DNA of 64,000 bases, taken from positions 354,826,001-354,890,000 of the forward strand of contig OZ024740.1 in NCBI GenBank assembly GCA_964016885.1, read 5' to 3'. This DNA comes from Eledone cirrhosa (Eukaryota). Positions 22,668-62,096 of this stretch are shown here, one piece after another. The translations under genes and the position numbers were made by a program. Position 1 is the first letter of the stretch. Every line of letters starts with the position of its first letter. The notes below the pieces were generated by a model. The model ran no database searches. It worked only from the letters and a program-made list of their open reading frames with translations, and was not told where the DNA came from.

Positions 22668-22705
<38 letters not shown>

Positions 22706-22743
22706 TAGCGAGGTTTTTTATATGAAATCGTGTGTCGAAACAA

Positions 22744-23204
22744 ATATTGTTATACTTGGGGAGGGTCATATTTGTGTAATATTGCCAGAATTAATAACAG
22801 AACACACTCACTGTTTGGTTGGTTTTCGCTTCTCGCTGTCTTTTATATCTGTAATCTAGCTTACTCGGTCCTCAATGTTGCCATTGACTGACCGACGGTC
22901 AAAAATATCACAGATACAATATAGACATAAACACATATATATAGTTTACATAATTTACATAAATCTTTCGTTGCACATCTGCAACATCGTCAGTGGTGTT
23001 ATATTTTCCTCCTGTTGTGTTTATGTCTATATTGTATCTGTGATATTTTTGACCGTCGGTCAAATGGCAACATTGAGGACCGAGTAAGCTAGATTACAGA
23101 TATAAAAGACAGCGAGAAGCGAAAACCAACCAAACAGTGAGTGTGTTCTGTTATTAATTCTGGCAATATTACACAAATATGACCCTCCCCAAGTATAACA
23201 ATAT
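22744..23204. repeat. long inverted repeat (~190-bp arms, 80-bp spacer) between (TA)n tracts
   Basis: 22744-22935 is the reverse complement of 23016-23204 apart from one 3-nt indel. Confidence 0.95.
22958..22996 (-). ncRNA. hammerhead ribozyme core with weak stem I
   Basis: Minus strand: CA-CUGACGA-U-GUUGCA(GAUG)UGCAAC-GAAA-GAUU-UA-UG; 6-bp stem II, only 2-bp stem I. Confidence 0.55.
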
Positions 23205-23212
23205 ATAAATAT

Positions 23213-23244
<32 letters not shown>

Positions 23245-23684
23245 CATAGATGGAGTTATATACACACACACTCTCTCTATTCCATGATTTGCTCCTGTAT
23301 AGCAGGCAAATCTCATTCGGGTTATTCTCTGTGATGGTTTTCTATTTTGCCATGCTCTTTTGTACACACAAACGCGCGCAAAATCATTAAATACACCACC
23401 TTAGCAAAAGTCCCAAATTTATAAATTAAACAGAAATTATCTGAATGAGATGTTTGAAGGGGGTGTTATTTTGTTCGGATAGCTGATCTGATCGCAAACA
23501 AAAGAAGCCAAGCTGAAAATAATTATGTAAAACACATGTTTGTAGAGTTTTATGTGTTTTCCAGTGTTGTATGTACTCTTGTGAAATCTTTGACGCGTTT
23601 TCACAAAGATCCAGACATTAAAATATCACTTTTCTGTTCGGGTGTTATTGGTGTTCCCTTTTTCTTCTACCTATGTCTATCAAG

Positions 23685-24020
23685 GCAGCGAATTGGCAGA
23701 GTCATTAGAACGTCGGATAACATGTTTTGTGGGCCTTCGTTCTGGCTCTCTGCTCACTTGCGTTCAAATTTCGTCAGAGATCAACTTTGCCTTTCTTTTT
23801 TTTTTAGGTTGATAAAAAAAAAAGGTACCAGTCTAGTATGGGGGGGGGGGGGGGATTCTTCCTCTATATATCTTTCTCACTTCTCTGTATCACTCTCTGG
23901 AAGAAATCTGCTGTGTTCAGATCTGGAGAGGCGATGGGCCCTGCCAGGTTTTAAAATGTTCCTCGAAATGCCGTATGTCAATATAGCACCCCTATAACTT
24001 CATCAGGAGTTACGGGTTCA
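23685..24020 (+). mobile_element. SINE, long-tail subfamily, near full length
   Basis: GGCAGCGAATTGGCAGAGTCATTAG head, GTTCAAATTTCG B-box, shared tail. Confidence 0.75.
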
Positions 24021-24290
24021 CGCCATACCATGTGCATCAATTCATTTTTAAATTTGAAGAATATAGTGAGATAGATAAACCTTTTCATTATTAAGCTGAT
24101 GTTTGAAAGATTACTTAAATAAAATTATAGTGGAAGGTTTTAATATAATATGAACCTTTTAAAATGAGTAGCTGTGTATCATAAACCCAGGGTAGTTTCA
24201 GGTGGATTGGTATCAAAAGGGGACAACAGAGTTGTAGCGGCAATGAAAACAGAACTGCTATTTCATGACAGTCATTTTGAAAATTTTTAC

Positions 24291-24646
24291 TACTAGAATT
24301 TTTTTCAACACATTGACGCGTATGTGTATATGTGTGTGTGTATGTATATGTGCATATGCATACATTTATATGTATGAGTATATAAATATAAACACACAAC
24401 CACCGACACATTTACAAAAATACACACTCACACACATACATTCACATAAATACACATACATTCACACACACACATTTACACAAACACATACACTCACACA
24501 GCGTAGCAAATGAAACGCCAACCGCTGTTTTGCTATAGTTTTTTCACCATCCCCTTCCTTCCTTTTACACACACACATACATTCACATAAACACACATAC
24601 ATATTGTGTGACGAACGGACGGTAGTCGTTCAAATTTATATAGAGA
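24291..24646 (+). mobile_element. CA-microsatellite-containing repeat, copy 1 (possibly Helitron/Helentron-type non-autonomous)
   Basis: Direct homologue of 24991-25326; starts ACTAGA and ends GACGG...TTTATATAGAGAT. Confidence 0.45.
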
Positions 24647-26026: not shown

Positions 26027-26205
26027 TGGATTGGCAGTATTGGTAGAGCGTCAGACACCATGCTTTGTAGCATAGAGTTATTGCTTTTTACGTTTTGAGT
26101 TCAAATCCCGCCGAGGTTAACTTTGTCTTTCATCCTTACGGAATGGATAAAATAATAATGCACTGTGGGGTAATTGCAGGACTTGTGCCAAAAGTAGAAA
26201 CAATT
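26027..26205 (+). mobile_element. tRNA-derived SINE
   Basis: 3429 family. Confidence 0.85.
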
Positions 26206-28477
26206 ATTTATAAAAACAACTATAATAAAGAAAAACGTAACACAGACTGAGAAAGAAAATAGGAATTGTATCAAATGTGACAAAAGACGCTTAAATTCAA
26301 AGTTCAAAAAGCAATAGTGCAGTTGATCGCCCCCTCATACCCCTAAGTTTAAAAAAGAAAGCAGATTCTCCCACACACAAAAAGACGGCTGAGCAAAATA
26401 TAAACAAATTGTTTTCTATATTAATTAAAAAGACATAGGTAAAGTTGAATGTAACTAATAAAAGAAACAGGTGGGGAGCTATTGAAAACTTGTAGTAACT
26501 GATTTTCAATGTATACTTGTATAATGTGTCTGTGACCAGGTCATAAAAGTACAATGATACTTTTTTGACACTTCGTAATTGGTGGCGAATTATCAGTGTT
26601 TAGAATGCTTTGTAGTATTTCTTCCAGATACTCTGAGCTCTGAGTTAAATCCCACTACTGTCGACATAGCCTTTCATCCTTTGAGGTCTATAAAAAAAAT
26701 TTATCATTTTAGTCCAGTATTGGGGTTGATTCTCTCTATCTCTTTCTTCTCCTCTGGAAGAAATCTGCTGTGTTCAGACCTGGAGTACATTGACCGTACA
26801 ATTAAGTAATAAACAAGTTTGTGTGTTCTTAAATAGCTTTTAAATAATTCTTTTATGATACATACATAGAAGTTGAATAGATAGATATTGCATTGGTTCT
26901 AATGATGAGCCTTCTAGTGGTTCAGTCCATAGTTCTACTTACTAATTGAATTATAATGTTAAGTAGCTGAGTATTTCACAAACATTTGTATTCTTAAAGT
27001 AACCCTCAGGCAGGATTAACATAACATTGAGTATAACAATGTATACTGTTTTTTTGCCTTAAATATAAAATTTAACTGACAAGCTCCCATGCTGCTTACA
27101 TCTACACAATTTCACTCACAAAACATGGTATCAAATGGGTTAATAGGTAGTCTATATTAAAAATTAAATGTTCAAAATTTCTGAAATTTATTCAAGTAAT
27201 AAAGAGGAAGTAAATATTATTAAAAACGCCCAAATAAGATATATGATAATCATCATCATCACTGTTTAACGTCCATTTTTCCATGCTAGATTGATATATG
27301 TAATATTCTGAACTAGACCCAGAGCTTCTGTTACAGTTTTGGGATTAGGCGGTGGCTTAAGTATATATACTGTACATGTGTGTTATTTTTATTATTAGCT
27401 CACACTTTTTTTTATCACCAATACAAGACCAAGAAAGAGATTAAAAACATGATCATACTAACATATTTAGAGTCAATAAAAATCAGTGTAGTAAAAAACA
27501 AAGCACAAGTATATTGAAATGAATTATTGGAAGGGCTTAAACCACAAAAGCTCCTTAGTGCTGGAAGTTTGTTTAAAGTTGCATTAGTTTGTTTAAATTT
27601 GTTTTGCAAGATTTTTGATTTGAAATTTTGTGTTCATGTTGCTAATAAAAACACATACAGCAGTTAATTTTCACACCAGTTTTATTATAACTAATGCATT
27701 CCTCGGTTACTAAACTAACCGGTTGGTTATTTGTCATATTTAACAAACAAACTGAAATGAAACTCAACTGGTGTGTGTTTATTGGTAGCATACACGACTC
27801 TTCCAAAGTAATAACAGTTTCTTTAAAATGTTGAATATATGATTGTTGCCTACACTAAAATATAGATATGATCACTGAAATAAGTTAAAGGCTTGGGATG
27901 TTACTTAACTTTCAGTCAAAAATGTACAGGTGCTGTAAATTTCTTCAGTAGGATGAGAGTAAAAAAAAAATTGAGTGGACAATGTATTTGCATACCACAA
28001 AAACAGACTGGTAAACTTTTCCCTCTGTGATTACAAAACTGTTGGCGATTGTAATTAATAAGTAGCTACTTTAATTATTTTTAACTGGTGGTTTTGTTAA
28101 CCATTATAAACTTCTAGTAGATAATTACTGAAAATACCGCTAATTGGGATTCTTATATATGTTGGTGTTTGAATGAAAGTTTTTTGCGACTACTGTGGTT
28201 TTATTTTATATTTCTTTCTTTAAATAATTTGGAAATCGAAGGAAGAAAAAAAATACAGAGCTTTGTAAGCATGTTTTGAATTGTAAAACAAACTACTTGT
28301 TTCTTCTCTTCATTGAGAATGTATATTAGTTGAATAAGATATTAATTTCTTTCCAGAATTGACTGCAATTTTGTTAAATTCTATTTCTATATATCTATTC
28401 TATATGTCTTGACTAACTTTTAAATTTCTTAAAATAGTTCCACTATTTATGCAATGATTTTTCATTTGTTTTATATA

Positions 28478-36100: not shown

Positions 36101-39100
36101 TAATGCTTGTTATCATTTTCTAATTTTAAGCAAATAATATATAATTGTCTTTTAAATATTGATTTCGAACTTGGGCACAAGGACCGTTGATACTCATGTG
36201 CTTGACTGACACTTATTTTATCCACCCCTCTCTGAAGCCAAACAGACAAAATTTCCTTCAATAAATTATGAAATGTAAACATTCACAAGAAAATTTAATA
36301 CTGATGCTCTACCGATTCTGCCAATCCTTTGAAGTAGATTTTCAACCTCTGTTAAATGGTCGAATGAACTTCCATAGGTTTTGGCAATTAACGTTCCAGT
36401 TGTTCAATTAACAGAGCAGCCTGTTTACGAAATTAATGTGTAAGTGGCTGAGCATTCCACAGACAGACACATGTGCCCTTAATGGAATTCTCCTGGAGAT
36501 TCAGCATCATTGTGTGATGAAGCTGGCCCTTTGAATTCCAGGTACAGTCCCTCCAGCAGGCTTCCAAATAGTTCTTATCTACCTAATTTCACTCACAAAA
36601 CGTGTTGACACAAGTCTATGATAAATGACACTTTCCCAAGATACCATGCTGTGGGATTGAACCCAGGAAGTAATGATTGCAATGTGAACTTCTTAACCAT
36701 TTAACTATGCACTCTCTTGAATGGTAAATGTAGACAGACTGACATATTTCATCTTTTCATTTGAAAGTATGATATATTTTATGTTGGGATTTTTTTTCTT
36801 CTTTATAATGGAATATGTCTTCAAAACCTCCAACAGCAAATACCCCCCCCCCCCCCCCCCCCCAAAAAAAAAGAAGAAAATTGAGTTTGTTAATGCAATG
36901 GAATATTTGAGTTAGGAAATACTTAATAAAAATGTTCTGTAGTCAATTAACTATTAACATCCTGTACCACATGAAGCCACATTAGCAAGACATTTTTGAA
37001 AAGTATAAATCAGCACAATGACAACATCACATTAAAAATTAAAACTGTACATTTTTATGATAATATAAATATAAATGAATGTACTATGAACATTTGAAAT
37101 AACAAACCAACCAGCTTTTAGATGTTTTCTGTTAAATCATTAGAAGATGTTATGATTTAATGAAAATGTTCTGTACTCAATACAAACCATCTTAATAATT
37201 TAGTTTTTTAATATGAAATTTTGTATTTAATCAATTATACATAAGCAAATTATGTCAACTATATTTTACAAAAAAAAGTTATAAAATGCTGGAAATAGGA
37301 AAATAAAAAAAAGATAAAAACAAAATTAAGTAACGAACTGAGGGGGGAAGTGGCAAAGGAGGGCAGATCTGGCTGTAAAAGAAAGTTGAGCAAAGGGCTT
37401 TAAATGAGAGGAAAAGGAGGGGAAAAGCAAGGACTATTAGGCCATGGAAGAAAGGTTTGGAGTTTGATTTACAGTAAATGATACTTGCTAGGCAGTGGGA
37501 TCAAACCCCAAACCTTATTGTTGTGAAGCAAATTTAACTACTCAGTCATGTTGTGTCTATATGTAGACAAATGTTTTAAGCCTATTTTCCCCATTAAAGT
37601 AGAGGTTAGCCCCACGGGTCCCTTAACTACAGACACATCATGGGGTCATTTTTGAGACAATGTCTTATGGTTGGGTGCTCTTTCTGGCCCCGACTCTTTT
37701 AGTCACCAGTAACATACAAGGATATAGTGTACCTACTCTAAACTGGCTTAGACACAATCATAGCTAAACAGATTGCTCTATATGAGTAGATATAACTTTT
37801 AATGAGACAGTTTAAGTTTAGAGAGATATAGATAAATTCTACTATTAAGGTTGAATTATAAATCATTCTTCATATAAAAGTGGAGGTTCAAGTCTGTTGA
37901 ATGATGTGGTCTTAATAGGGTATCCAGAAATTGATCCTGTGTTGTGACTACAATGCAATATCAACTAATGACATGGTGAACAAGGAAAGATATGAGTACA
38001 GGACAGCATTTTTATGATCATTGGTTAACTAGATGTTTTATTCTTTTACTGGCTTCTGTCACTAAACTGTTGCCATACTGAGGCAATGGCACAGGGGCTT
38101 CAAGGGTATCAACTATATCAACCTACACTTGATTGACATTATTTTATTAGCCTTGGAAGGATAAAAAGCAAAGTCAACCTAGGTAGGATTTGAACTCAAA
38201 ACGTACAGGTATTGTATTAAATACTACAAGATATATTGTTGAATGCTTTACCAATTCTACCATCTATAGTCTATGTATGATTAGATCGTAAAGACAAATT
38301 TTACAATTGATGTTGAATTAATAATTGTTCTTCAGATAAAAGTAGAGGTCAGCTCTGTTGAGCAAGGCATTAAGAAGCACTGAAATGTGTGGTTTATTAA
38401 GAATAAAGGGAGGAGAATACTTCTGTAATTATATACCTTACAAGTATGTTTCATTCACTTAATTACTTTTTATTCCTCCCAACACTTTCTCTCTCATAAA
38501 TCCATTTGAATACATTAAAAGGACAAAAAAAACAAAAAACCCCAAACAAAAGAGACATTCTGCTTTCCAAATATAAGAAACTGAGATTTTCGCTAGCTCC
38601 TCTGATTATCTACACTACAATGTATTGAAGATTAGTTTAACAAAGCCATTGTAGCTAAAGAAGTGTTTTCAGCTGCTTATGATATTAATGTCCTATCTTC
38701 AGGCAAATGTTCTGAATATTTCCACTATATCCTGTCTTTTTATAATCACTAGTTAGATTTGTTTCAAATATAGATTGAGTATATTGTTAAACACTAGGTC
38801 ATCCCTGATCAAGCAGACCGATGATCAAAGGTGTTTAAGATGGTCATATCAATCCTTTTTTTTTTAGAAAAGTATATCTAGAACTACATACTCAAGTGTG
38901 TTCTTTTTTTAAAGACTTTAGAATGTAATTTGAGGTGAATTTGGATGCCATTTCTATTTGATTGAATGTCCGTGTAGCGAGTCTTTTCTGAGAACTGATT
39001 TTACTGTGACCATTACTGAAGACTGGGTTTCTGGATACAATTGCTCTCTTGACAAATCCTGTTGATTTATTTCGCTTTTAGACTTTTCTAATTTTAATGT

Positions 39101-40586: not shown

Positions 40587-40790
40587 TACTTTAGGAGTGT
40601 CATTTCTGCCAGTTGAATTTCACTTTGGTTTTGTTAGCAGTCAGGTTACTAATCATTTCTCAGTTAATTTAGTAAACTAGATGGTTATTTAAATTTTATA
40701 GTTAATTGTCAAAGCTCTTTTGTCACATATTCTGTGGCCTTCTCTGTTACTATTCTTGCTCTTCTGTATCTCCTCTTTGTTTTGAATAAT

Positions 40791-45880: not shown

Positions 45881-45957
45881 ACACATAACGCAGATATTTA
45901 CAAAAAATGTATAGATAATGATATGCCTTATATTTTTGACATTTTTAGACACAATAC

Positions 45958-46777
45958 TGAAAGGCAGGCTGTATGATGCCTGCATACGAACAGCAATGTT
46001 GCATGGCAGTGAGACCTGGGCATTGTGTGCAGAGGATATACGCAGACTAGAGAGAAACGAAGCTTGCATGCTCCGCTGGATGTGTAATAGTAATATACGT
46101 GAACGGCAAAGCATAAACGAACTAAGGGAAAAATGAGAAATAAGAGGGATCAGATGTTGTTTACTCGAGAGAAGGCTACGTTGGTATGGTCACGTGATGC
46201 GCATGAAGGACGATAGCTGTATAACAAAGTGCAGGGCAATAAAGATAGACGGTAGCCACGGAATAGGCAGACCCAGAAAAACCTGGGACGAGCTGATAAA
46301 TTCCGACCTCACACACTTACACCTCTCCAAGACAATGTCACTGGACCGAGACCTTTGGCGGTACTCAGTAAGAGAGAAGACCCGCCTTACCTAAATACAA
46401 AGTAAAACCTACTACAGTCAGTAGGCATCTCTAACAAAATACACCCACGTCCCACCACCCCCACCCCATCCACACCGCCCCTTTCAATGTAAAGTTATGT
46501 TGGTGCCACAACATCCAGGCCGAAACAAATGAGATCGTGTAGGTGTCACGTCAAAAAAACACACAGTTCACGCTGTAATGTGGCCGTGTAGGCAACACGG
46601 TAAAAACCTCCCAGCCCCACACTGTAAATGTGGTTGGTGTTAGGAAGGGCATCCAGCTGTAGAAAACCTGCCAGATAGTCCTATGCGAGCAAGATAATCA
46701 CTCTTGCCTCAAGTGGGAAACCCCCGTCCAAACCCATGCAAGCGTGGAACATGGACGTTAAATGTTGATGATGATGA
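45958..46777 (+). mobile_element. RTE LINE 3' fragment, same family as 40791
   Basis: Near-identical to 41760-42559; premature TGA at 46134-46136. Confidence 0.95.
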
Positions 46778-47869
46778 ATACAGTACAATACAGCTCCCCA
46801 CCACTCATATCAGATTATAACATACAGGATAATGAAGTTAACTTACAAATATAACATCTGCTGACAGCATTATAATGCACCTGAAGAGTATCAAGAACTG
46901 TTAACTTACCATATATACTCGTATATAAGCTGAGAGATATGTGACAAAAAAAAAAAAAAAATTGATTGTAAAATTGGGGTTGGTTTATACGAAGTCAATA
47001 TTTTGCCAATTTTCACCAAATTTTACATAAATGTGGTGCAAACATACTTTGGAGGTGAATATTACATTGGTTTCACTTTGGAGTCTGCATTTTGCTTACA
47101 TTCCTGCACATAGTAGAGTGCTTTGACAGGTCAGGAGCCTGTGATTCGCATATGAGCCCCTGCACTGCTGAGTGCATTTTATCATGCCACCCATACTAAA
47201 GAGGTTGTCATGTCTTTGATACCCTTTTTCTCAGTGGTTTGCTTTAGCTGGATGCCCTTCTTATTATCAACCACTTTAGAGTTCTCTTGACCCTTCGTTT
47301 GGCAGGTTTTTTTAATCACTAAATGCTTTTTTTTATCATTAATCACTTTACATGTGTGAGTGCATTTATCAAGTAACTCACCAACACTAGAGAAGTTGTC
47401 ATGCCCTTGACACAACTGCAGAGCCGTGTACTGGGTGCATTTTTTCTTACACTAGCGCTGTTGTCAGTCATTTACTCAGGAATGGGGGTGGCCATGGGTA
47501 TATGACATGTGTGATGGAGTGGTGGAATTTGGGTGGGTAAAGAGTAGGAGGGTATGTGATGATCACAGATATTAAGGTGTTAAGACTGGTGTGTTAAGAC
47601 TTAGAGGGGAAATGATCCTGTCTAGATAATATGGGTGTTAGGATTTTTAAGTGATTGGGGTGTTAATCCTGGAGATAGAGTATGGGTTGAGGTTTACTGT
47701 GATAGTGAGAATAACTACTAAAGGGGTTGAATAGGATGTTGAATGATGGCGAGGATAGTTAGCAAGGAGCACTTGTGGAAGGGGAAGGGCACAGATAGGT
47801 CGGTAGTTGGGTTTTCACCAGAACAGCATTTTGACAATCCTGGATATAGATATATATATATACACAAAC

Positions 47870-48830: not shown

Positions 48831-48857
48831 GAGATATATATATATTGAAATATATAA

Positions 48858-49116
48858 TGAAAATTAACCTAAAGTTAGGCGCTTCAATGCACATACTTTT
48901 TTTACTATGAAAAATAGGCTAACAAATTGGGCATAAAAGTCCCTGGATGGAAAAATGTTGACAGCATTGCCCATCATACACCATACAGCAGATGTGAGTC
49001 ATGTCCCATGGTCAATGCAGTCAACTTTCCTCCCGGGGCTTTTACGCCCAATTTGCTAGACTATTTTTCATAGTCAAAAACATGTGTATTGAAGCTTCTA
49101 ACTAGGTTAATTTTCA
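48858..49116. repeat. decayed long inverted repeat between TA tracts
   Basis: TGAAAATTAACCTA...ACTATGAAAAATAG...CAAATTGGGC...GTTGAC.GCATTG.CCAT is mirrored after a ~33-nt spacer. Confidence 0.8.
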
Positions 49117-51444
49117 ATAAATACATATCTGCTCAACGTTTCTAAAAATAGACCATATATATATATATATATAGCAGAGTATAAAAGTTTTAATATAGAT
49201 GAGATTCTACAGGACTAGAACTGTTTCATTCTTGAGAAATCATCAGGATGTGTGTGTATCTTTCACTGTTATGTATCAGTGAGGGATATAATCTGTACTG
49301 GAGATAAAACTGAATAAATTGCTGATTTGGGAAGGAAGTCCTTTGAGTTAGAGACATACTTTTATCACTGCGGCCACCAGAAATGTTGTGAACCAATGAT
49401 TGGCTCATTGCAAACTTGTAATCAATGACACTTTTCTTCACAAATCACAATATAAAACAAACAATATAACATAATCGCAACTAAAACTGTTAAGCTAGTG
49501 TGGAAGATAGACGTTAATCGATGATGATGATAATATGCAAACAAAGTGACTCCAAACCAATACTATCCATGAACTCAAGCAAATGTTGTCTATTTACCTA
49601 AACTCAGCCTTACCTTTCAGATATATTCTACACTAGACGTAAAGTAAAAAATAATTTGGCTTTTCATAACTAAAAAATAATTTGGCTTTTCATAACTAAA
49701 CCCCAAAACATAACAACAACCATATCTATAGTATGGGGTGATGGATGAGATGAAGCTGCAGCTGCCATATTACTTAGTTTTTATATATATATATATCTCT
49801 GTAGCAATGTATGTACATGTGCAGGCATCTAACTATACATGCGCTGTAAAACTATTATCATCATAATCCTGATGATAATTATCATCACTAGGAAAACAAA
49901 AGTTGTTCATCACTACAGTATGGTTTCTCCTCAGTCAGTGTTATTGTCATTTCATCATGAAACTTCACTGTTCTAAAACCTCATCTAATTACTTGCCAAA
50001 AGGTCTTACATAATCGAGATATTTGACACTTTTGTGATTAAATTTCCTATGATATACAGTCTATTTCAATTAATTAATAATGAATTTTGAGGGATTTATT
50101 ACAATTATTAATTATTTCATTACTAAGATAACAACATAACATGGTTCTTATATAAAATTATGTTGGGAGATTTTAATTTAAATAGGAACCTTTTAAAATG
50201 AGTGGTTTTATTTCATAGAACCAGAGGTGGTTTTGGGCCAGGCTGGTATCAAAAGGGTTAATAAAAAACAGGTGAAACTTATATAACAACAACAAACTAT
50301 GTTTTTTTTATTTGTCTTGGAGAGGAAATAAGAGCTTAGAAATGTGTTAATCTCTTGAGTGATTGTACACTCGAGGAACAAACAATTTAATCTTGTTTGT
50401 CATGTCAAAGATTAGTATGAGTTCTCAATCATCAATTAATTGAGATACTACTTCTATCTTAATGTTAATTAATCTCTTTTAATAATTTAGATCCACCCAC
50501 CAATCTAATTTTGAAATGGCACTTATTTTATACTTCAGTCAGACTCTGGCAATAGAAGGGAAAGAAGTGTGAGCAATTGTGATTATCAGTATGAAACAGG
50601 TGATAGCAGTAGTTGACCGACTTGTTAATATGTTGATTTACTCACTGTAAGATTGATACTTCACATTCCATTATGGTACTTTACTCTGAAAGCTGATATT
50701 TAGAGCATAACAAAATAAAAAAATATATATATAAAAGAATCTTAAATAAAATTTTGATAGGTTTTAATATAAGGATAAGTATTTTAAAATGAGCAGTTTT
50801 GTATCATAAACTCAGGGCAGATTCAGGTGGTTTGATATTAAAAGAGTAATTAGCTAGTGGGTCTAGGTTCAACATATAGGTATACCTTGAAGGTATACCT
50901 CCAAGATGATTTTTCCAAGATATACTATGCAAACATGGAATCTTCAGTGGTACCTGAAAGGTTCAATGAGTTATGGTACTTTCATATCCTCTTTCTTTTA
51001 TTTATTTATTTATTTCAGTTTTGTGACCCTTTTGTCACTTTTATGCTGTATTTAACTCTTAATGTCCTCTACTGCTTGAAATTAATTAAGCAAGGCATTC
51101 TTAAAAAAGTACAAAACAGAATTAATTTAGCTTACTGCAAATTTTCACAATGATCTCTCCACTAGTAAAGATACTACAAACATTTGAATTAATAAATCCA
51201 TTTTTAGATATTTTCTGCTAAATCAATACAGGATGTTATGGTAGCTTTTTATATTGAAATTAAATGGGGCTACAACAGCAGCAAACAACAATCATTATAA
51301 GGCCAAGTTTTCTGTTAGCCATGTAGGCCCCATGAAAAGCTTTATATTCATCATGGTGTCCTTTTTGAAACAATGTTTTACAATTGGATGTCCTTCCTGG
51401 TGCCAACACTTAAAATATTTAAAATTAAATAGCCCAATCATAAT

Positions 51445-51585
51445 AATTGTTTCTACTTTTGGCACAAGGCCAGCAATTATCCAGTGCATTACTGGTACTT
51501 TATTTTATCGACCCCGTAAGGATGAAAGGCAAAGTTAACCTTGGCGGAATTTGAACTCAGAATGGCAATGACCGTAACTCTATGC
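51445..51585 (-). mobile_element. tRNA-derived SINE, 5'-truncated
   Basis: Reverse complement of the 3429 family. Confidence 0.8.
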
Positions 51586-52971
51586 GTTAAGATTAATTTA
51601 TATAAAGGAGAGCCAGGTCCACGGAGCACAGCCCCATTACCACCGTGCCCTAGGCCCAGAACCCAATCACCCTCCCCCTCCACCATTCTTCTGTGACACT
51701 AGAGCCCTTGCCAATCCCTTCCTTTCCTGTTTTTTTTATTTATATTTTATTATTTTACATTCCATTCTCTCTTAATCTAATCTTTTTTTCTCTTTCTATT
51801 AAATTGTGTTTCGTACCTATCTGGTGTTGGTGCATTGATTTCCAGTTTTCTAATTATTGTATCTAAATTTCATATATGAAGATTATTATCCATGGCCTCA
51901 TCTGTTCAATATTTTTTGATTGAATTTTGTCTGAAATTTTTTTTGTTTTATATGAACTCATTTAATACATGCGCTACCCTACATTTGGCATATATTTGAT
52001 TTTTATTTCTATGAAAGGAATCGGTTGTATGCAGGAATCTGTTGTTTTTCAATTACGTGGACCCTCATGTGTCAATAGGTTTGTCATTTCCGATCTCAAC
52101 TGCACAAGCTTTTCATATATTTCTCTCTTCACACACACACACGCACACACTATCATTTTACATTTTCTTTCCATGTTGGCATAGGTTGAGTAAGTAATTT
52201 CTGTGTTAGATCTTATTCAGAGTTATTGCTCTTTTGGATGGGTCAGAGGATCACACTTTGCTCATGTTCCATTTTTGGCAATGTTTCTATAGTGTAATAC
52301 CTTTCCTAACACTAACTATGGTATTTAGGTCATGTTTGATCCTCTATAAGTCTAATATGAGAGTCAACTGAAAAGATCATAGGCTGACCAAGATACTCTC
52401 ATGGAATGGCCAAATAAAGTACATTTTTCAAAGTACCTAAAACTGATGTTGGTCCTTTGATATAGAACTGTTTGTTTTAAAATGTTTATGTTTATCTAAA
52501 AACCCTCCAGCACCATTTCCTGTAAGAACCTTAAGTTCCAAATGCCAACTTAATAATGAGAAAGTTAGTTATATTACTAAATCCCTTCAAATTCTTGATT
52601 ATTTTCAAAATCATTTGAAAATCCTAGGCAGTGTCTTTCATTAGAAATCTGGTAATGAAATGGTTAATGTTCAGAATGCTTGTGCTTATTTTTAACATTC
52701 TCTCTTCTTCAAAGCTTTCAATCAATTATTTTCTAGTTGTTAATCTGTATTACTCTGGAGCATCTTATCTAACCACAGAATTAATAAACTTTAAGTGTCT
52801 CAATAAAATATTAATTATGTAACCCATAGTTAATTACCCTACATTGTTACTATTCTATAGGTGGCCCCTGTCTATCAAGCCTCACACTTCATCAGTTGTA
52901 CTATATATATATATATATATATATAATAATAATAGTAATAAATCGAAAATATATCACTATAGCATCATATT

Positions 52972-53031
52972 TATTTCATTATATATATTTCTAGGATACT
53001 AATTTATAGTATGCTTTTATCAGATAAAATA
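52972..53031 (-). ncRNA. hammerhead ribozyme, probably inactivated (CUGAUAA)
   Basis: UAUUUUAU-CUGAUAA-AAG C AUACUA(UAAAU)UAGUAU C CUA-GAAA-UAUAUA-UA-AUGAAAUA; homologue of 57046-57110. Confidence 0.65.
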
Positions 53032-53111
53032 CAATATTTGATGTATAAGATAGTGACATACCTGTTTAATACTTATCAACAAAGCATATAACTCATTGTT
53101 TATATATATAT

Positions 53112-53773
53112 AGCATAAACGAACTAAGGAAAAAATTAGAAATAAGAGGGATCAGATGTTGTTTACTCGAGAGAAGGCTACGTTGGTATGGACACGTGAT
53201 GCGCATGAAAGTCGATAGCTGTATAACAAAGTGCAGGGCAATAAAGATAGACGGTAGCCACGGAATAGGCAGACCTAGAAAAACCTGGGACGAGCTGATA
53301 AACTCCGACCTCACACACTTACACCTCTCCAAGACAATGTCACTGGACCGAGACCTTTGGCGGTACTCAGTAACAGAGAAGACCCGCCTTGCCAGTAGGC
53401 ATCTCTAACAAAATACACCCCGTCCCACCACCCCCACCCCCACCCCCACCCCATCCACACCACCCCGTTCTATGTAAAGTTATGTTGGTGCCGCGCCATC
53501 CAGGCCGAAACAAATGAGATCGTGTAGGTGTCACGACAAAAAAACACACAGTCCACGCTGTAATGTGGCCGTGTAGGCAACACGGTAAAAACCTCCCAGA
53601 CCCACACTGTAAATGTGGTTGGTGTTAGGAAGGGCATCCAACTGTAGAAAACCTGCCAGACAGTCCTATGCGAGCAAGACAATCACTCTTGCCTCAAGTG
53701 GGACTACCCCCGTCCAAACCCATGCAAGCGTGGAACACGGACGTTAAACGTTGATGATGATGATGATGATGAT
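53112..53773 (+). mobile_element. RTE LINE 3' fragment, same family as 40791
   Basis: Near-identical to 41912-42559; abuts a (TA)n run; (GAT)n tail. Confidence 0.95.
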
Positions 53774-54458
53774 ATATGAAAGACGTAAAATAAGAATATT
53801 ATAAAAATTAACTTACTTACTAAAATTTCACTCCAACTAATTAGTTTCTGAAAGGGAATAAACATGGTTTCCGAATGGAACGCATGGAGAAGGCCTTTCG
53901 TCATCAGGAAGTCTATTCTCAGCTAAGTTCCCAGGCGATGCGTGGACACAGGGAACTTATACAAAAATAATTCAGTGGATGGAAAAAAGCAATAAATTCC
54001 AAGACATTGAAAAAATCACTGCCTACTTGGTCGGTGGCAAATTCAAAAGAATCAATCACGTGACATCGAGGTTAATCAGTGAGGAGTGGGGTGTTAAGAA
54101 GACAGTAGCCGAACTATTACTATGAACTATAGTAGCAGTTTTGGCAAATTTTTGCTCAACAAAATAATTAGTATATAATTATAAAGAATTAGTATATCTA
54201 CCAACATATATATACAGATGCATACCTATGCTAGCAAATATATAGGTTTTGTCTTAGTAACTTTGTGGTTCAATGCATTTAGGCTTGATAGACAGGCGCC
54301 ACATATAGAATAGTAACAATGTAGGGTAATTAACTATGGGTTACATAATTAATATTTTATTGAGACACTTAAAGTTTATTAATTCTGTGGTTAGATAAGA
54401 TGCTCTTTTAGTAAGTAAGTTAATTTTTATAATTTTCTTATTTTACGTCTTTCATATA
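53773..54458. repeat. inverted repeat pair B/B' (53-bp arms at 53773-53825 and 54406-54458)
   Basis: TATATGAAAGACGTAAAATAAGAA.ATTATAAAAATTAACTTACTTACTAAAA is mirrored with one mismatch. Confidence 0.9.
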
Positions 54459-54561: not shown

Positions 54562-54774
54562 TTATATATATATATGTATGTATGTATGTAGATAAATCTA
54601 CCAAAATATACGGTAGTATCCAGTCCGTATGAAGAACTCAATGTAATCCAAATATCATGAAAAGAGAAGATGCATTCAAAAATTGTCGATGAAAATCATA
54701 GGAAAACAGAGTCAAGATAAATTAATAAAAACAATGAAATAAAAACAAACAACAAGTTCCTTATATTAAAAAAT

Positions 54775-54910
54775 TCATCATTTTACGATTGTTTCTAGGA
54801 TGTATATGTGTATTGGTATGTATATCATATAGATCTATGTAAAAATATTACAAATTATCAGAGGAAATATACATACCTTCACATATTCATGCTGTCTTCA
54901 GAAATGATGA
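54775..54910 (-). ncRNA. type I hammerhead ribozyme with a ~100-nt stem II
   Basis: Perfect 9-bp stem I UCAUCAUUU/AAAUGAUGA; CUGAAGA (54901-54895); long imperfect stem II including GGUAUGUAUAU/AUAUACAUACC; GAAA-C(AAUC)G-UA. Confidence 0.75.
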
Positions 54911-55126
54911 GATTTGTTTATTGAAAAAAACCAACAAAGATTTAATATAAAAGGCCTGTTTGGGAACAGGTTTTGAATTGACCAATAGAAAAGTAGTTAG
55001 AGGTCAAGTTGATAGATTAGGGGTAGAAGAGTGCAGACTTATGTTTTGAATGAAAAGAATACTTTGGGGATGAAAAGAGGTCAAGCCAGTGAAGGGTACA
55101 CGAAAATTTGATGTTATTAAAGAAAG

Positions 55127-55400
55127 GGGTGGATTGGGAGTATCGGTAGAGGGTCGGACGCCATGCTTTCCAGCATAGTTACGTCCCTTTATGATCTGAG
55201 TTCAAATCCCGCCGAGGTTGACTTTGCCTTTCATCCTTACGGGGTCGATAAAATAAAGTACCAGTAATGCACTGGGTGATTGCTGGCCTTGTGCCTAAAG
55301 TAGAAACAGTTATTAAAGAAAGGGTCGATAAAATAAAGTACCAGTAATGCACTGGGTAATTGCTGGCCTTGTGCCTAAAGTAGAAACAGTTATTAAAGAA
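55127..55400 (+). mobile_element. tRNA-derived SINE with a duplicated 3' tail
   Basis: Full SINE to ~55308, tail repeated at 55322-55388; GTTATTAAAGAA occurs three times (before, between and after). Confidence 0.85.
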
Positions 55401-56434
55401 TAATGTTAAAAACGAAGGAAAATAAAATTTTAGGGTAATTTTAGTGAGAAATACCAATCTTATTTAAACCACAAGAAATCTAGATCTATAACAAGAGATT
55501 AAATTAATTGATAGGTTATAAGGATAAATTTATATTAATTCATATGAATGTGATAAATAAGAATTAGATGTTATTAGAAAGTGTTGTTAAAAAACGAAGG
55601 AAAGTAAAATTTTGGGATAAGGGTAGTAGTGAGAAATACCAATCTTATATAATCTAGATTCATAACAGGAAATTAAATTAATTAATTTTTAGGTATACTT
55701 TTAGGTATTAATTTTAGGAAAAGAGAGCTGTAAGAGGGAAATAAAATTATGAAGTTCTCTGTTAACTAAATAAAAAAAACTAAATATAATAATGTGAAAA
55801 ATATAAGTGTAAGGTGTATATTAATTAGGTTTATAATATTTGAAGGTTCTTCTAATTTATATATATATATAAAATAAAAAAAAACGGATTATAAAAACTC
55901 ACATTAATCCACTATAAATGAGCTCAAGGGAGAGACCCGGGCTCTTTATAAGACAGTAAATGGAGAAAAGTACACAGAGATGTGTGTTCAATTATAGGGG
56001 ACATAATACCACCAGAGTGAAAATCATATAATCTATGAACAGAATGGAAAGGATAAATCAAAGTATAAATTAAAGTGTACACATATATATATAAGGAAAA
56101 AATATGAAATCGAAAATGCAACTGGAGTCTTTTTAAGAATATTTATTTGGATCCTTTATCGGTTTTGCGGTTCTTATGCTTTTCAAAAGTAGAATTGAGA
56201 TGGAGGGTTTGTGGTTTTTCTCGCATCGAGAATTTCATCTTTTTTCCTTATACTGTAGGACATCTTGTTTTTTTTTCATTTTGAAAAAACCCCTCATTTT
56301 CTAATATATATATATAAAGTATATACATGCATACACACACACACACACACACGTGTGTGTTTATTTTTCTCATTTTCTCTGTTCCTTTCTCTCATCACTC
56401 TTTACTTACTATTTATGGTTTATTTCTAACTCTA

Positions 56435-56466
56435 TCTTTTGATGAAGGACGTCTGAAACGTTAAGA
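56435..56466 (+). ncRNA. minimal hammerhead relic (C3 to U)
   Basis: UCUU-UUGAUGA-AGG(ACG)UCU-GAAA-CG-UU-AAGA; palindromic ACGU stem III. Confidence 0.5.
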
Positions 56467-56890
56467 CTCTCTTCCTGCTATTTCAAGCAGTAAAGTAATA
56501 TATTTCTTTCATGTACTGTGCCGTTTGTTTTGTTATTTTTATTATTTCTTTCTACCTTTTACAAATACACACATCATCATCATCATCTTCGTTTAACGTC
56601 CACTTTCCACTTCAAGATATATGTACATACAGTTATTAGTTTTCAGTTTCTCTAACACTAAATCCAGTGTCAATAATTTAGTCGTAATAAATGTAGGTTT
56701 GGTTTCATCATCATTACATTGCTTACTGAAATACTCAAGATAATCATTTGTGATTTGTGCTGAAACAACCCCTTGGGGCAATAATATCGGGGTGGAAAAG
56801 CATTAGAATAATAATGTAGGTAGCTGACTACTTGCTCTGTTAGATCAGGTGATTTCATTTGAAATGTTATCTGTTCTTATCTTATATTGG

Positions 56891-56935
<45 letters not shown>

Positions 56936-57045
56936 AAAGTTCTATTTAAATTGTTGGAAGCTCCCGGGAGCTTCCAGCAGTAATGGTTGCATTCTTTAAG
57001 GGTATGTCAATATTTATTTATAAAACTGCTCTATATTATATATTA

Positions 57046-57110
57046 TATTTTATCTGATGAAAGCACACCATAATTTAACTTGGTGTCCTTGAAATATGTA
57101 TAATGAAATA
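57046..57110 (+). ncRNA. type I hammerhead ribozyme, intact core
   Basis: Stem I UAUUUUAU/AUGAAAUA (8 bp, one GU), CUGAUGA 57054-60, stem II AAG-C-ACACCA(10 nt)UGGUGU-C-CUU, GAAA 57091-94, quasi-palindromic AUAUGUAU, predicted cut after 57102. Confidence 0.8.
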
Positions 57111-58172
57111 AATATGGTTTTATAAATATAGTTTCCATTTGTTAATATCGTATATATATATATGAGAGAGAATATCTGTGTGTGTGCGTATTTGTTCATA
57201 GTTTGTGTTGAAAAAAAAAATTTGTTGTAGCTTGTTAAACAATTTGCTCCTACTTGTTTTTATAAGATCACTTAATGTATTTTAAATATTACTATTTTTA
57301 TATTTGTGTAATGTCTTATTACATTTTCAACTTGTTTTTCTTTTGTTTTTGTTTGGATGTAATTATCTTCATTGAATATTGTTTTTCTTCTTCTTTGTAA
57401 TCCAGTGATATTAAACTTCAGATTGGCAAAGTTTATATTCAATTTGAGTTTAGAATTTTAGATTTTATTCTGTGATTGAGTTTAATAATTCCTGTTTTCT
57501 GTTTAGTTTTATTTTATATATATAATCCTATCTCTAAGGAGTGATGTTTACCTTGTATTTTGTTTAATATTTCTTCTCTGAAACCAAAATCACTGATGTG
57601 CAGAAAGTATTAAGAGACAGAAATAGAAACCACATTTACCTTACATTTTAAATGAAAATATCACACAGTTCTTCGTAAACACAAGTTGCTGGAGAAAATT
57701 TTGAAATATATTTAACCCACAGTTTGAAACTTATCTCCTGTAGCTTTGTGTATATAGATGTGTATGAAAAACATTGATCATAGTAAGGTTGTTGAACTTA
57801 AAATTGTTGGAATTGTTGTTTAATATTAAAGTTATTTTAGTGCAATTAAATCATGGAAGAGTCAATTTAGCTATTCAGGAAAAACAACAACAAAAAACAA
57901 AATACTCATACACACATAAACTATTAAATTCACTGTACATCTATCATTTATTTCTTAATGTCAAAGCTTCCATCACACTGTTTGTAAACTGGTCATTGAC
58001 ACAGTTCCTCTGCAACTGATTGAATTAGGTAACCAAACTGCAAAGGGTGCAACAAAAGATTTGACACCAAGCAATAAATCATAAATTGTAAAATGAATCA
58101 AATTTTTTTTGTGTTATTTGAATGGCTAAAATGACTCCACCATGACATATTTACTTTAGTCTCAACACATGG

Positions 58173-59188
58173 TCATCATCATCACCGTTTTACGTCCGTC
58201 CTTCCACGCTAGCATGGGTTAGACGGGTTGTCCTGTTGTGGGCAGTGTCGGCTGACCATGCCTTGCTCATACAGGAACTGATTTGGCTTGATTTCTACAG
58301 CTGGATGCCCTTCATAACACCAACCTCATTTACAGTGAGTGCTGGGTGCTTTTTCGTGGCGCCTACACGTCCACTTTACAGTGTGGGCTGGGTGCTTTTT
58401 TGCCGTGGCACCTCCATGACCACCTTGCAGTGGGAGGGTGTGGGGGCATATTGTCTATATGCTTCAGCTTGTATCCATGGGAGGTCAGGTACTCTGTATT
58501 ACTGCATGACGCCAGAGGTCACGGTCGTGTGTCATCGCCTTTGAGAGGTGTAATTGGATAAGGTCGGCTTTTATCACCTCATACCAGGTCATCTTGGGTC
58601 TCCCCACTCCGCGGTTTCCATCGACTTCTAGTGCTCTGCACCTTTTTATGCAGCTGTCATCCTTCATACACATCACATGTCCATACCAACACAACCGCCT
58701 CTCCTGCACACATCATTTGATTCCTCTTATGCCCAGGCTCTCTCTCAATTCATTTATGCTTTGTCGTTCGCGTATATTACTATTACACATCCATCGGAGC
58801 ATGCAGGCTTCGTTTCTCGCTAATCTAAGTAAGTCTTCCACCTTCAGCGCCCAGGTCTCACTACCATGTAACATTGCTGTTCGGATACACGCATCATACA
58901 GTCTGCCTTTCATTTTGAAGGAGAAGCCTTTTGCAGCTAGCAGTGGCAGTAGTTCCCTGAACTTCTTCCATCCCGTTCTTACCTTAGTTATTGTACTTTC
59001 TGAACACCCACCTCCGCTGCTAATTCGGTCACCTAGGTAGCAGAAGCTGTCTACTGTCTCTACAGAGCCCTTCCAGAGATTGGTGGTACTTGTTTCCTGT
59101 GGCTGTTTGCTGCTTGCTGTCCCAGTACAGCTGCATGTGAAGCCTACATTCTTAATTAAGCTTCCTGAGATCCCGCTACATCTCTTCA
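58173..59188 (-). mobile_element. RTE LINE 3' fragment, sister subfamily
   Basis: ORFs 58713..59189 and 58485..58709 are homologous to ORF 41417..42199; related 3' UTR and GAT tail. Confidence 0.92.
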
Positions 59189-61545
59189 TCTGAATCTCAG
59201 ATCAATTCACTTGTCAGACAAGTACATATGCTGAAAATATACATTGCCATCATTATGCAGTTTGGGTTTGACTCTATGTCACCTGTGCAGAAACCCATTG
59301 AATGAATGTTTTTAGGTGGTAGATTTAATTCATTGATCAGTTTAATACCAATATATAGCAGTTGCTGCCAGCAATCAGGTCTCTGATCTGAGGATAACTC
59401 TATATCTTGATGAGCTGCTTCTTATTGTTTCCAGACACAAGTCATGGTTTCTTCCTTCCTTTCTCCCACTAGTCTCAGGGATTCATTCAAGATCATGGGC
59501 ACTGCTGTTCTACTTTTGACTAAGTCATGGAAAATTAATACTGTATAGACAACTTTGCTATGTGGTTGCTTTGAAGAGCTGCCTAAATTATGATTTTAGA
59601 TCTGTTTTTCAGTACAATAATCCAGGGGCCAGCAAACTACATACAGCCCACAACTTCATTTTATCAAGATTGTCGACTTCATTGAATTTGTGACATTGCA
59701 TGCAAACATTCTTTGTTTTTCGTAACAATATTTGGTTAGCAAACTATAAAATTCAGTATTATAGAAAAATCTCATTTTCGCAGAAGACTCAAATGAATCA
59801 ATGTTTTACATTTACATATTAAATATTCCCCACCTTCTCCAAAAGTCTAAGATCCCTTCACTAGGTGAAAAAATGAATGTTTGCTCAGGTGTTTTCTTGG
59901 CAGTTCACTAGGTCTTGCCTGCCTGGCTAAAATGCTTATCAAATTATATATAAACTAGGAAAAAATGCTAAAAACTTTAGTGGTGTGGTATTTTCCTGGT
60001 AAACCTTTGTTGGTAGTTGTCCTGCTCCTCACTAATATATTTTTACATGCCTGACACCACAAATTTATCCAAACTGACATCAAACTGAAACTGTTTTCCT
60101 TGTGACATTATTATACACACAGACTAAAACATTTGTGTTGGATGAATTTAAATAACACTAATTGTGACTGCTATTTTTTTCTTCCCATCATGCTGTTCTC
60201 TTGATGTTGTTATGACTCTTATATTGTATTATTTTCCCTGCCCTAATTTGTTTATATGTATTATTTTGTGTCATATTTCTGAATCTTGTGTAGTTTAGCA
60301 AAATAAATATTTTTATTAACATAATTAAAGGATTTTGTGGTATCAGGAAACGCCAGCTCTTATGGTTATTCTTTATACTACTGTTGAAAAACATTTATTT
60401 TATTGTATGTTAAGCACATATAATGTAACACATTGAAGTAATTAAAAAACAAGTTGTTTTCATACCTTTATACAATCATGGTTTATTTTTTATTTGCCTT
60501 GACCTTCAAGACAAAAACATTTCTAATCTGCTCACCTCCAGAAAAGTTTTCTGCTCCCCACTGTTGATATTCCTTAGCTAAGATCAATAACAGTTTACCA
60601 ATTCGGTTAAAAACAAATGTATTATTGCTAGATGTGTCATTAGATGTAGTAAGTTTTCAGTTTTTATTAGTAAATACAAGCTTTCTGAAGAGATTTGGCA
60701 GAACTAATTTATGATTCAGTGGCCCTATTCTTTTTCCAAGTAAGACAAATTGTATATTAATCTGCTCTAGAGATGATTGCAGACTTTGATTTGTGTCACA
60801 TACTTTTGGTTACCTCTTTTGATACCAATGTGCCTGAAATTGTCCTGGATTTATTACACAAAAGTGCCCATTTAAAAATGTTTATACTTAAATTAAAACT
60901 TCCCATCCTAATTTTATTTAAGAAATTTTTGTTTTAATAATGGTAAAGTTAGTTATTTTATTAAAGCCATCGATTTTTAAAATTATTATTTTCAAAGTTA
61001 ATTGAAATACGTAAACAATATTTCATTAGAAATATGGTAACATAAGAATTAATGTTTCAGCTACACACCACTATGACTTCATTTTGAGATGTGAATTCAA
61101 GTCATCAAATCAAGGAATATGAATTGTCTTTATTGTTGGATGAATTAGAGAGCAAAACTTTCCTAAGCCTATTTACCCAGAGAATGTGATCATCTCTTTT
61201 ACTCTTTTACCTGTTTCAGCCATCCGGCTGAGGCCATGCTGGGGCACCGCCCTTGGGATAAAAATTTTATAACAAGTTATGAAAATAAATTACTTGTTTT
61301 CTTGGTATTAAAGAAATATTACATGAAAGATTAAAAAATCAAAACAAGTGAATATATAGCTCTATATTCTATGTATTTAATTTGTCTCTTGCTCTTCCTC
61401 CTTTTCCTCTCTCTTTGAATAGATGTACACACAGAAGCGTCCATTTACTCAACAGTTCAATGAGCATTTATGTTTTTGCATGAAAAACCAACAACTATAA
61501 AATACAACACATAATAGAATGTATATATATATATCTGAGTGTATG

Positions 61546-61598
<53 letters not shown>

Positions 61599-61697
61599 AA
61601 TGAAGTAATTCCGTCGGAAAAGTCCAGGAAAAAAGAGTGCTCTATGTAAGCAACAGAGCTTAATTATTATTATGTAATAAACAACATAAGGCAATTA

Positions 61698-61757
61698 TTC
61701 CATTTACCAGTGGTTTCTTAAAAGCAAAAGGTTTTGCTTTCAATCCTCAGAACGAAA
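61698..61757 (-). ncRNA. type I hammerhead ribozyme (mirror copy)
   Basis: Exact reverse complement of 61969-62028. Confidence 0.8.
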
Positions 61758-61968
61758 AAATCCTGGTTTGTTTATTGAATTTGGATCTTAAAAACAAAAA
61801 AAGCAAGCTATATGAAAGTGAGGCTGGAGAAGGAAGAAGGAAAGGAAAAAATAAAAACAAAATAAGACTACTTATTTTTTCCTTTCCTTCTTCCTTCTTC
61901 AGCCTCACTTTCATATAGCTTGCTTTTTTTGTTTTTAAGATCCAAATTCAATAAACAAACCAGGATTT

Positions 61969-62028
61969 TTTCGTTCTGAGGATTGAAAGCAAAACCTTTT
62001 GCTTTTAAGAAACCACTGGTAAATGGAA
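61969..62028 (+). ncRNA. type I hammerhead ribozyme, intact core
   Basis: Stem I UUUCGUU/AAUGGAA, CUGAGGA 61976-82, stem II UUGAAAGCAAA(ACCU)UUUGCUUUUAA, GAAA-CC(ACU)GG-UA, predicted cut after 62021. Confidence 0.85.
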
Positions 62029-62054
62029 TAATTGCCTTATGTTGTTTATTACAT

Positions 62055-62096
<42 letters not shown>

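Follow-up and report, generated by a model that had tools for sequence, protein, structure and literature searches.

Four short repeats, each embedded in (TA)n, carry type I hammerhead ribozyme motifs in a 64,000-nt stretch of the Eledone cirrhosa genome (assembly GCA_964016885.1, contig OZ024740.1, positions 354,826,001 to 354,890,000; hereafter the window). With a probability of about three in four they are 3' ends, truncated on their 5' side, of Penelope-like elements (PLEs) from at least three families, one of which (family B) likely belongs to the Hydra clade, and were left by reverse transcription that would have been primed at a cut in a TA repeat and have stopped early. An earlier note, made from the sequence alone, had described at least seven hammerhead sites in several families of dispersed elements; five of these motifs are real and sit in four (TA)n-bounded blocks of three families, namely two solitary copies of family A and the inverted pairs that we call blocks B and C (Table 1). 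The kind of element and its anatomy are already in print: PLE insertions in which a 5'-truncated copy lies inverted, a tail of 30-40 bp is found on one side, and (TA)n is favoured as the target have been described (PMC8557442) and are treated as usual elsewhere (PMC8969392), and 31 recently active Penelope-like families were reported from Octopus vulgaris (PMC13282606). An exact-word search of one PLE library (the supplement of PMC8557442) recovered none of the three families, which thus count as new members.

The motifs were located with descriptors of type I order, i. e., helix I, CUGANGA, helix II, GAAA, a short helix III, and UH, whose settings were picked after the sites had been seen, and the counts were compared with those in 40 shuffled windows, in which dinucleotides had been permuted locally, within blocks of 1 kb. 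An intact core with helices of at least 4 bp was matched three times, at 57054(+), 61976(+), and 61750(−) (hammerhead coordinates refer to C3, the first core base), against a mean of 0.025 in the shuffles. With a helix I of at least 2 bp, the intact core was found four times against 0.02 per shuffled window, which adds 22993(−), and one core mismatch combined with strong stems gave four matches against none, adding the G8A variant at 53023(−). None of the 40 shuffles attained the strict-descriptor counts, and the excess over dinucleotide-shuffled sequence that the earlier note had proposed to look for is therefore present in the window. With one core mismatch and weak stems there were seven matches against 2.3, a number reached by two of the 40 shuffles.

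At the seven flagged sites, the core in type I order (CUGANGA, GAAA, UH) is intact in four cases, carries G8A in one and C3U at chance level in another, and is lacking in the last. The sites flagged at 61969 and 61698 correspond to CUGAGGA at 61976(+) and 61750(−), with a helix II of 11 bp, a helix III of 3 bp, a GUA triplet, and a helix I of 7 bp, and represent the two arms of a single insertion, block B. The site at 57046 holds CUGAUGA at 57054(+) (helix I of 8 bp, helix II of 9 bp), and the one at 52972 holds CUGAUAA at 53023(−), which is homologous to the 57054 motif (score 137, reached by none of 200 shuffles) and represents a decayed sister. For 22958, CUGACGA at 22993(−) is followed by a bulged U and a 6-bp helix II starting with a G-C pair, while helix I comprises just 2 bp; the core is confirmed and the fold is weak. 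The remaining two sites did not hold up. The one flagged at 56435 (56439(+)) is admitted only by the loosest descriptors, which give 1.85 and 2.4 matches per shuffled window; it is not above chance and is possibly a decayed minimal motif. The other, at 54775, has no helix II ahead of GAAA, is matched by no descriptor setting, and is not significantly similar to family A (44 and 30 of 200 shuffles score equally well). The notion that AT-rich DNA full of hairpins produced every one of the sites by chance can be given next to no credence: it holds for the loose descriptors (1.85-2.4 chance matches per window), covers 56439 and 54775, and would agree with the missing Rfam hammerhead match (see below), whereas it is contradicted by the strict counts and by conservation across copies, and is already refuted for five sites.

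Pairwise comparisons (15) among the three families, the hairpin at 54775, and the site at 56439 revealed clear likeness between the two family A copies only; in one of these 15, family C versus the 56439 region, the score was reached by two of 200 shuffles. Further candidates were discarded, namely a fifth intact core at 53907(−) that has no helix I, and matches with one mismatch at 63155, 38335, 45639, and 57689, plus 60577, which appear only at chance-level settings. Outside the window, a pattern scan of viral contigs gave no loci, and all 25 loci from metagenome contigs were chance 18-mer matches with neither core nor flank likeness.

All four confirmed blocks have (TA)n at both ends, and other copies of family B end in (TA)n as well, both of which speak for the microsatellite targeting that had been suggested. 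The blocks measure 175-502 bp, not up to 1300 bp as first described, and long inverted repeats, said to surround several of the sites, are found in two of the four (blocks B and C). The predicted cut sites lie 39, 49, 55, 111, and 258 nt from the next downstream run of (TA)6 or more, whereas, over all positions, 4.7 % have such a run within 120 nt and 9 % have one within 260 nt; a sense hammerhead near the 3' end, a feature of the pseudo-long terminal repeats (pLTRs) of PLEs, is thus seen for five motifs. In full-length PLEs, the pLTRs flank the ORF in a partial tandem arrangement (pLTR-ORF-pLTR).

Blocks B and C are head-to-head inverted pairs with their 3' ends outward. In block B (61596-62061), the arms at 61665-61854 and 61872-62061 are identical at 189 of 190 nt and both hammerheads read outward, which means that the copies are joined at their truncated 5' ends; the left copy, with a T-rich upstream part like a PLE 3' untranslated region (UTR), exceeds the right one by 17 nt at its 5' end and by about 69 nt at its 3' end. 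The arms of block C (22703-23204) align over 189 columns with no mismatch and one 3-nt gap, and the loop of its long hairpin contains the entire motif. Both pairs have a one-sided 3' extension (41 nt in C, about 70 nt in B), and the truncation points of their two copies differ (by 17 nt in B and 80 nt in C). The two family A copies, in contrast, are solitary, with no inverted 5'-truncated copy at either; they are 78 % alike over 119 nt, share the same end point before (TA)n, and differ in helix II by two C-G to U-A double changes, the hammerhead of the second copy, with its G8A core, being likely dead. Near the left end of the first copy lies a 28-nt palindrome (56952-56979) whose outer bases resemble the family B tail hairpin; it might have been contributed as a tail by an inverted partner, but an arm to match it was not found.

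Self-cleavage by these motifs is a prediction from their sequence. The hammerhead fold comes close to the minimum-energy fold in family B (−10.7 versus −11.3 kcal/mol) and less so in the first family A copy (−6.0 versus −10.5 kcal/mol). For a read-through RNA of block B, 190 base pairs are predicted (−312 kcal/mol), and the inverted pair would bury its own motif in this 190-bp duplex; as the two motifs are on opposite strands, they cannot dimerise within one RNA. The motif of block C, which is in the hairpin loop, could still fold.

Minimal type I hammerheads of PLE pLTRs are mostly solitary and were considered "probably related to truncated PLEs", with pairs occurring 100-700 bp apart on opposite strands; they have a G10.1-C11.1 pair, and helix II is preceded by a bulge (Cervera and de la Pena 2014, PMC4209133). 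The motifs described here follow the same type I order, combine a long helix II with a helix III that is short and palindromic, are mostly solitary, and include opposite-strand pairs, and family C additionally has the bulge and the G10.1-C11.1 pair, whereas families A and B have a 7-8-bp helix I with further interrupted pairing and no G10.1-C11.1 pair. Non-LTR retrozymes likewise are short, non-coding, AT-rich units that contain type I hammerheads and are related to PLE pLTRs, and the present blocks (type I hammerheads, AT-rich units of 175-500 bp) might be such units, cut from tandem transcripts by successive hammerheads and then circularised. Yet retrozymes are defined by tandem units arranged head to tail (PMC7229834; bioRxiv 10.64898/2026.07.22.740005), while the blocks stand alone or as head-to-head pairs, none of them recurs head to tail within the window, and the paired motifs on opposite strands cannot cut one RNA twice. 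The comparison with retrozymes thus fails on architecture, and a retrozyme origin appears highly improbable.

A plausible route to such blocks is offered by the protein of the Poseidon element PAc of Anolis. In vitro, it cleaves AT-rich DNA on both strands, extends both, and begins synthesis at two neighbouring sites within the RNA, in agreement with the tail, the hammerhead requiring the protein and being dispensable for insertion (Frangieh et al. 2024, PMC11167929). By analogy, the reverse transcriptase (RT)/GIY-YIG protein of the element would bind its RNA near the 3' end and cut both strands of AT-rich DNA, and cDNA synthesis would begin at either of two nearby internal sites, giving rise to a short or a long ("tailed") end (PMC11167929). 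Both strands would be extended, both cDNAs would abort, and the truncated ends would presumably become joined to yield an inverted pair, the joining step being our own addition. The hammerhead itself would act at the precursor stage, when the RNA is full-length or tandem, and there probably in dimeric form or assisted by the protein; in the fragments found here it is likely a passenger. Small PLE hammerheads reportedly cleave as dimers, a finding attributed to Lunse et al. 2017. For a minimal PLE hammerhead, the monomer was uncleaved and dimers were weakly cleaved (PMC4209133). AT-rich targets are common to PAc and the present elements, as would be two adjacent internal RT start sites that define the tail, and in family C the 3' end apparently also lies inside the start of an open reading frame (ORF); the mechanism was established in vitro there (PMC11167929) and is proposed by analogy here, and the family B tail is longer and looks non-coding. 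For annotation, palindromic, ORF-less, TA-embedded repeats, which are easily filed as miniature inverted-repeat transposable elements (MITEs) or unknown, would be corrected to PLE debris, and the young head-to-head pairs would serve as clean fossil products for testing the two-strand priming model.

Other genomic copies were traced in read data for the family B stretch 61596-61905. It was matched by 2698 and 2382 contigs (two runs of one sample), by 8538 reads of a restriction-site-associated DNA (RAD) run with the same species label, and by 36 contigs of a second organism; family B is plainly very abundant, the summed depth not being a copy number. Loose ends occur before 61597-61600 (27 + 21 contigs in run X1) and before 61670 (38 contigs) and continue into (TA)n or, in some records, (GT)n; family B has two alternative 3' ends, about 70 nt apart, and the one-sided extension of block B lies between them. 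RAD pile-ups at 61607, 61693, and 61778 were rejected as RNA or element ends, as they coincide with AATT sites and are restriction ends. In run X1, the depth exceeds 100,000 on the arm, is 300 at 61860-61870, and is zero beyond 61882. The junction region of block B has a thousandth or less of the arm depth, which suggests that this junction is rare among copies; filtering may possibly have removed short unique contigs as well. At 61850 (34 contigs in X1) and at 61871 (2760 RAD reads, perhaps from one locus), the records continue upstream into related, low-complexity sequence that is G/T-rich in the element sense, of which 30 letters are visible, short of any ORF. Other junctions are seen as well, from 61806 to 61880 (16 reads) and in three weak opposite-strand joints (3-4 reads or one contig each).

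Among 40 of the 83 variants, none of the 37 core, helix III, and tail-stem positions (12, 4, and 21, respectively) is a variable place, compared with 35 of 217 others (Fisher p = 0.004), so that conservation of the core among copies, which the earlier note had made a test of its proposal, is observed for family B, with none of the 12 core positions variable among the variants listed. Within the ribozyme, the listed variants change N7, two bases of loop 2, three G.U pairs (each to a Watson-Crick pair), and a loop-closing pair; three of the four listed changes in helices I and II therefore turn G.U into Watson-Crick pairs. Another four listed changes fall within the 5-nt loop of the tail hairpin.

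The same data bear on the suggestion that the elements are non-autonomous and mobilised in trans. Accordingly, the blocks would be dedicated short PLE derivatives that are transcribed on their own into a 250-500-nt RNA with hammerhead and tail and are copied by a PLE protein. Such a scenario appears unlikely, if the most serious of the alternatives considered. It would account for the missing PLE ORF in the window and for the roughly hundredfold drop in family B depth from 61816-61848 to 61860, as expected of a fixed 5' end, and there is precedent in non-autonomous PLEs with pLTRs from Chlamys (PMC8557442) and in the proposed derivation of vertebrate retrozymes from PLE pLTRs (bioRxiv 10.64898/2026.07.22.740005). 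However, at 61850 and 61871 contigs and reads continue instead of ending, the other junctions mentioned above exist, the copies within each inverted pair are cut off at different points (17 and 80 nt apart), and family C ends in an apparent ORF start. The label is moreover not needed, because truncated copies suffice to explain the data: PLE copies are normally 5'-truncated (PMC8969392), other family B copies continue upstream of the truncation point of block B, and its junction is rare. 5' truncation itself makes the absence of an ORF expected, and trans-mobilisation would hinge on nothing but an ORF missing from 64 kb.

Returning to truncated PLE ends, family B probably belongs to the Hydra clade, a placement built on non-coding features. 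This clade of PLEs with a C-terminal endonuclease (Craig et al. 2021, PMC8557442) includes, e. g., Hydra-1_Obim, Hydra-1/2_Ajap, Hydra-1_Crog, and Penelope-13_HM, and nearly all of its families insert in (TA)n and carry canonical hammerheads, one of them from Octopus bimaculoides (PMC8557442); both marks are present in family B. At the protein level, the clade is marked by RWK, DKT, a CxCX5C linker, and no CCHH. Shared features further include a sense hammerhead about 40-115 nt from the 3' end, a T-rich 3' UTR, a near-palindromic helix III with a 1-nt centre, and a 13-mer with a hairpin downstream of the hammerhead, and for Penelope-13_HM an inverted 5'-truncated copy is listed. Differences are the longer helix II of family B (11 bp), in which no ORF is seen, and the tail hairpin, which does not feature in the main text of PMC8557442. 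The 13-mer from this hairpin occurs twice in the 584,131-character supplement of that paper, both times at Hydra-clade consensus ends, namely once at the 5' start (Hydra-1_Ajap) and once downstream of the hammerhead (Hydra-2_Ajap), with the same 6-7-nt 5' stem ahead of each; it was not found in the Naiad and Chlamys consensus files, and line breaks anywhere in the supplement can hide matches. Apart from the central base and the cleavage-site base, helix III of family B is that of Hydra-1_oBim. By eye, Hydra-2_Amil shows the same stem-bulge-stem with a different inner stem. In Hydra-1_Crog the structure is looser, and the long end of this element lies about 115 nt beyond the cut site (109 in family B), whereas no such hairpin is visible at the end of Hydra-1_Amil and the start of Hydra-1_Obim is only partly similar. 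For the hammerhead sequence of family B there is no match in the supplement, which argues that the family is distinct from those listed there. Likeness to Hydra-clade termini is not a published membership criterion.

The conserved stem-bulge-stem between two 3' ends of Hydra-clade elements is possibly the one new point. The terms "hairpin", "stem-loop", and "palindrom" do not occur in the main text of PMC8557442; Repbase entries, subscription papers, or figure images may hold a description of the structure. A literature search found no cephalopod hammerhead study. The 77-nt family B tail with the hairpin has z = −2.5. Tentatively, and with the odds rather against it, one may envisage that Hydra-clade PLEs have kept a stem-bulge-stem hairpin between two RT start sites, shared by sea cucumber, coral, and the present genome and with an inner stem that changed in a compensatory manner, as an RNA signal that positions the RT/endonuclease; it might explain a tail of twice the textbook length and, together with the hammerhead, constitute a minimal module of about 170 nt for (TA)n-targeted insertion. 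If the hairpin is a protein-binding signal, it would offer a handle on the formation of tails and inverted ends and on the microsatellite aim, both listed as open in PMC8557442.

Another conceivable origin of blocks B and C is that they are foldback or MITE-type DNA transposons inserted at TA, with hammerhead-like words in their terminal inverted repeats by accident. Near-perfect 190-bp inverted arms and TA-rich flanks would suit such elements, and other palindromic elements without hammerheads are present in the window, but the repeats are not terminal on both sides (one-sided extensions of 41 and 69 nt), the block B junction is rare among copies and other junctions are seen instead of one fixed unit, the family A copies have no inverted arm, variation spares the hammerhead core and the tail hairpin, and family B matches Hydra-clade termini. 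All in all, a DNA transposon is very unlikely, although a shade less so than a retrozyme.

In family C, the 41-nt tail and the last 26 nt of the arm form an open frame of 22 codons from an ATG at 22769. Between the family C end and a relic at 40364-40416, 8 of 53 nt are different; six of these are third codon positions and five are synonymous, while at most two would be synonymous in any of the other five frames. On the strength of this one short comparison, the 3' end of family C is likely the start of the ORF of the element. Decayed relics akin to the tail were found at 40364-40416, 27574-27634, and 37202-37238, and the first two extend beyond the end point of block C in the same reading frame. 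A profile search with the peptide returned three singleton proteins of 58-91 amino acids (aa) whose common part is the same short stretch only, and which are probably other family C copies. Six short words of the peptide gave one match, an unrelated one, in a file of PLE ORFs, and no full-length protein for the frame was found by word-based or profile searches.

Several findings weigh against the assignment of the blocks to truncated PLE ends. As the earlier note had stated, no PLE protein domain (RT or GIY-YIG) is visible among the 192 stop-to-stop ORFs of at least 62 aa in the window. The link to Penelope ORFs that it had proposed to look for could not be established either: no RT or GIY-YIG sequence was tied to any block in the window or via protein searches, two word-based searches with the family C peptide gave nothing, and PLE membership, through tails, inverted 5'-truncated copies, hammerhead position, and the Hydra-clade terminus match, thus relies on non-coding features. 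Rfam, which the note had also suggested, yielded 46 matches in the window at E up to 1 and no hammerhead family among them, all being hairpin or microsatellite look-alikes under gathering scores. Concerning the folds, a 76-nt family B piece has a minimum-energy fold that locks the core into another hairpin, and the hammerhead fold of family C, with its 2-bp helix I, lies 4.4 kcal/mol above the minimum. The copy data cover one family of three (family B); there, 43 further variants lie outside the count, so that the core cannot be called invariant for certain, the loop-closing pair of helix II is broken by one of the listed changes, and the steep fall in depth near 61850 also fits a fixed-length non-autonomous unit. 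Lastly, the family B tail, at about 70 nt, is longer than the 30-40 bp in print (PMC8557442), the Hydra comparison was made by eye and with exact words, where line breaks in the supplement can hide matches, and families A and C are not assigned to a clade.

Table 1. Positions in the window of the hammerhead-bearing blocks, their parts, and the two flagged sites that were not confirmed.
Feature	Positions	Strand	Remarks
(TA)16, left target repeat of block C	22671-22702		
Family C one-sided 41-nt extension (tail)	22703-22743	−	
Block C left arm	22744-22935	−	3' part of the longer copy
Block C spacer, 80 nt	22936-23015	−	5' part of the longer (left) copy; whole hammerhead, C3 at 22993, predicted cut after 22960
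Block C right arm	23016-23204	+	Copy truncated further, lacking both hammerhead and tail; TA-rich repeat 23203-23243 comes next
Family A copy 2	52926-53100	−	Between (TA)12 and (TA)6; G8A, C3 at 53023, predicted cut site 52980
Decayed hairpin	54765-54921		66 % self-complementary, at flagged site 54775; no complete hammerhead
Hammerhead-like site	56427-56470	+	UUGAUGA (C3U) at 56439, 3-bp helix II; flagged 56435
Family A copy 1	56932-57150	+	Between (TA)19 and (TA)6; intact motif, C3 at 57054, predicted cut after 57102; long interrupted helix I
(TA)24, left target repeat of block B	61547-61594		
Family B one-sided extension (tail, about 70 nt)	61596-61664	−	Between two 3' ends found in other copies
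Tail hairpin and five following bases	61634-61659	−	Common to termini of Hydra-clade PLE consensus sequences
Block B left copy	61665-61871	−	Arm 61665-61854 and 17 further nt; motif 61757-61698, C3 at 61750, predicted cut after 61705
Block B right copy	61872-62061	+	C3 at 61976, predicted cut after 62021; terminal (TA)18 at 62060-62095

The window as a whole has 34 % G+C and is rich in microsatellites and repeats. Five of its 192 ORFs have a Pfam match at E up to 0.001, none of them to a PLE domain, and thirty readings of the blocks and of pieces of a long interspersed nuclear element (LINE), 27 of them with stops as X, likewise revealed no PLE domain in Pfam. One plus-strand frame at 54576-55115 is protein-like through several stops and has no Pfam match; a motif at 54640-54690 may resemble a PLE C-terminus, a likeness that Pfam does not support. 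Palindromic blocks without a hammerhead match are located at 48851-49123 (78 %), 4786-5190 (75 %), and, decayed and between two TA runs, 55870-56305, and are either MITE-like or old PLE pairs. A 688-bp element at 53773-54458 with 53-bp terminal inverted repeats (98 %) and TA at its start and end holds an open frame of 87 codons (53862-54122); a protein-atlas search with 53907-54122 gave no result. Its inner stretch 54281-54405 recurs in inverted orientation (98 %) at a distance of 1.4 kb, at 52758-52882; simple nesting does not account for this order.

The broken LINE, with pieces at 40786-42560, 45950-46780, 53112-53770, and 58146-59200, has an RT domain at 40786-42196 (RVT_1, E 1e-23) followed by a PHD-finger-like insert, and its 3' fragments end in (GAT)n; it is presumably RTE-type. 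A weak RVT_2 match on the minus strand at 63609-63860 (E 1e-4, under the curated cut-off) is a possible copia-type fragment. Finally, an abundant family resembling short interspersed nuclear elements occurs in both orientations at 3435-3620, 14140-14600, 19405-19784, 26029-26208, 51441-51590, and 55114-55400, among others.

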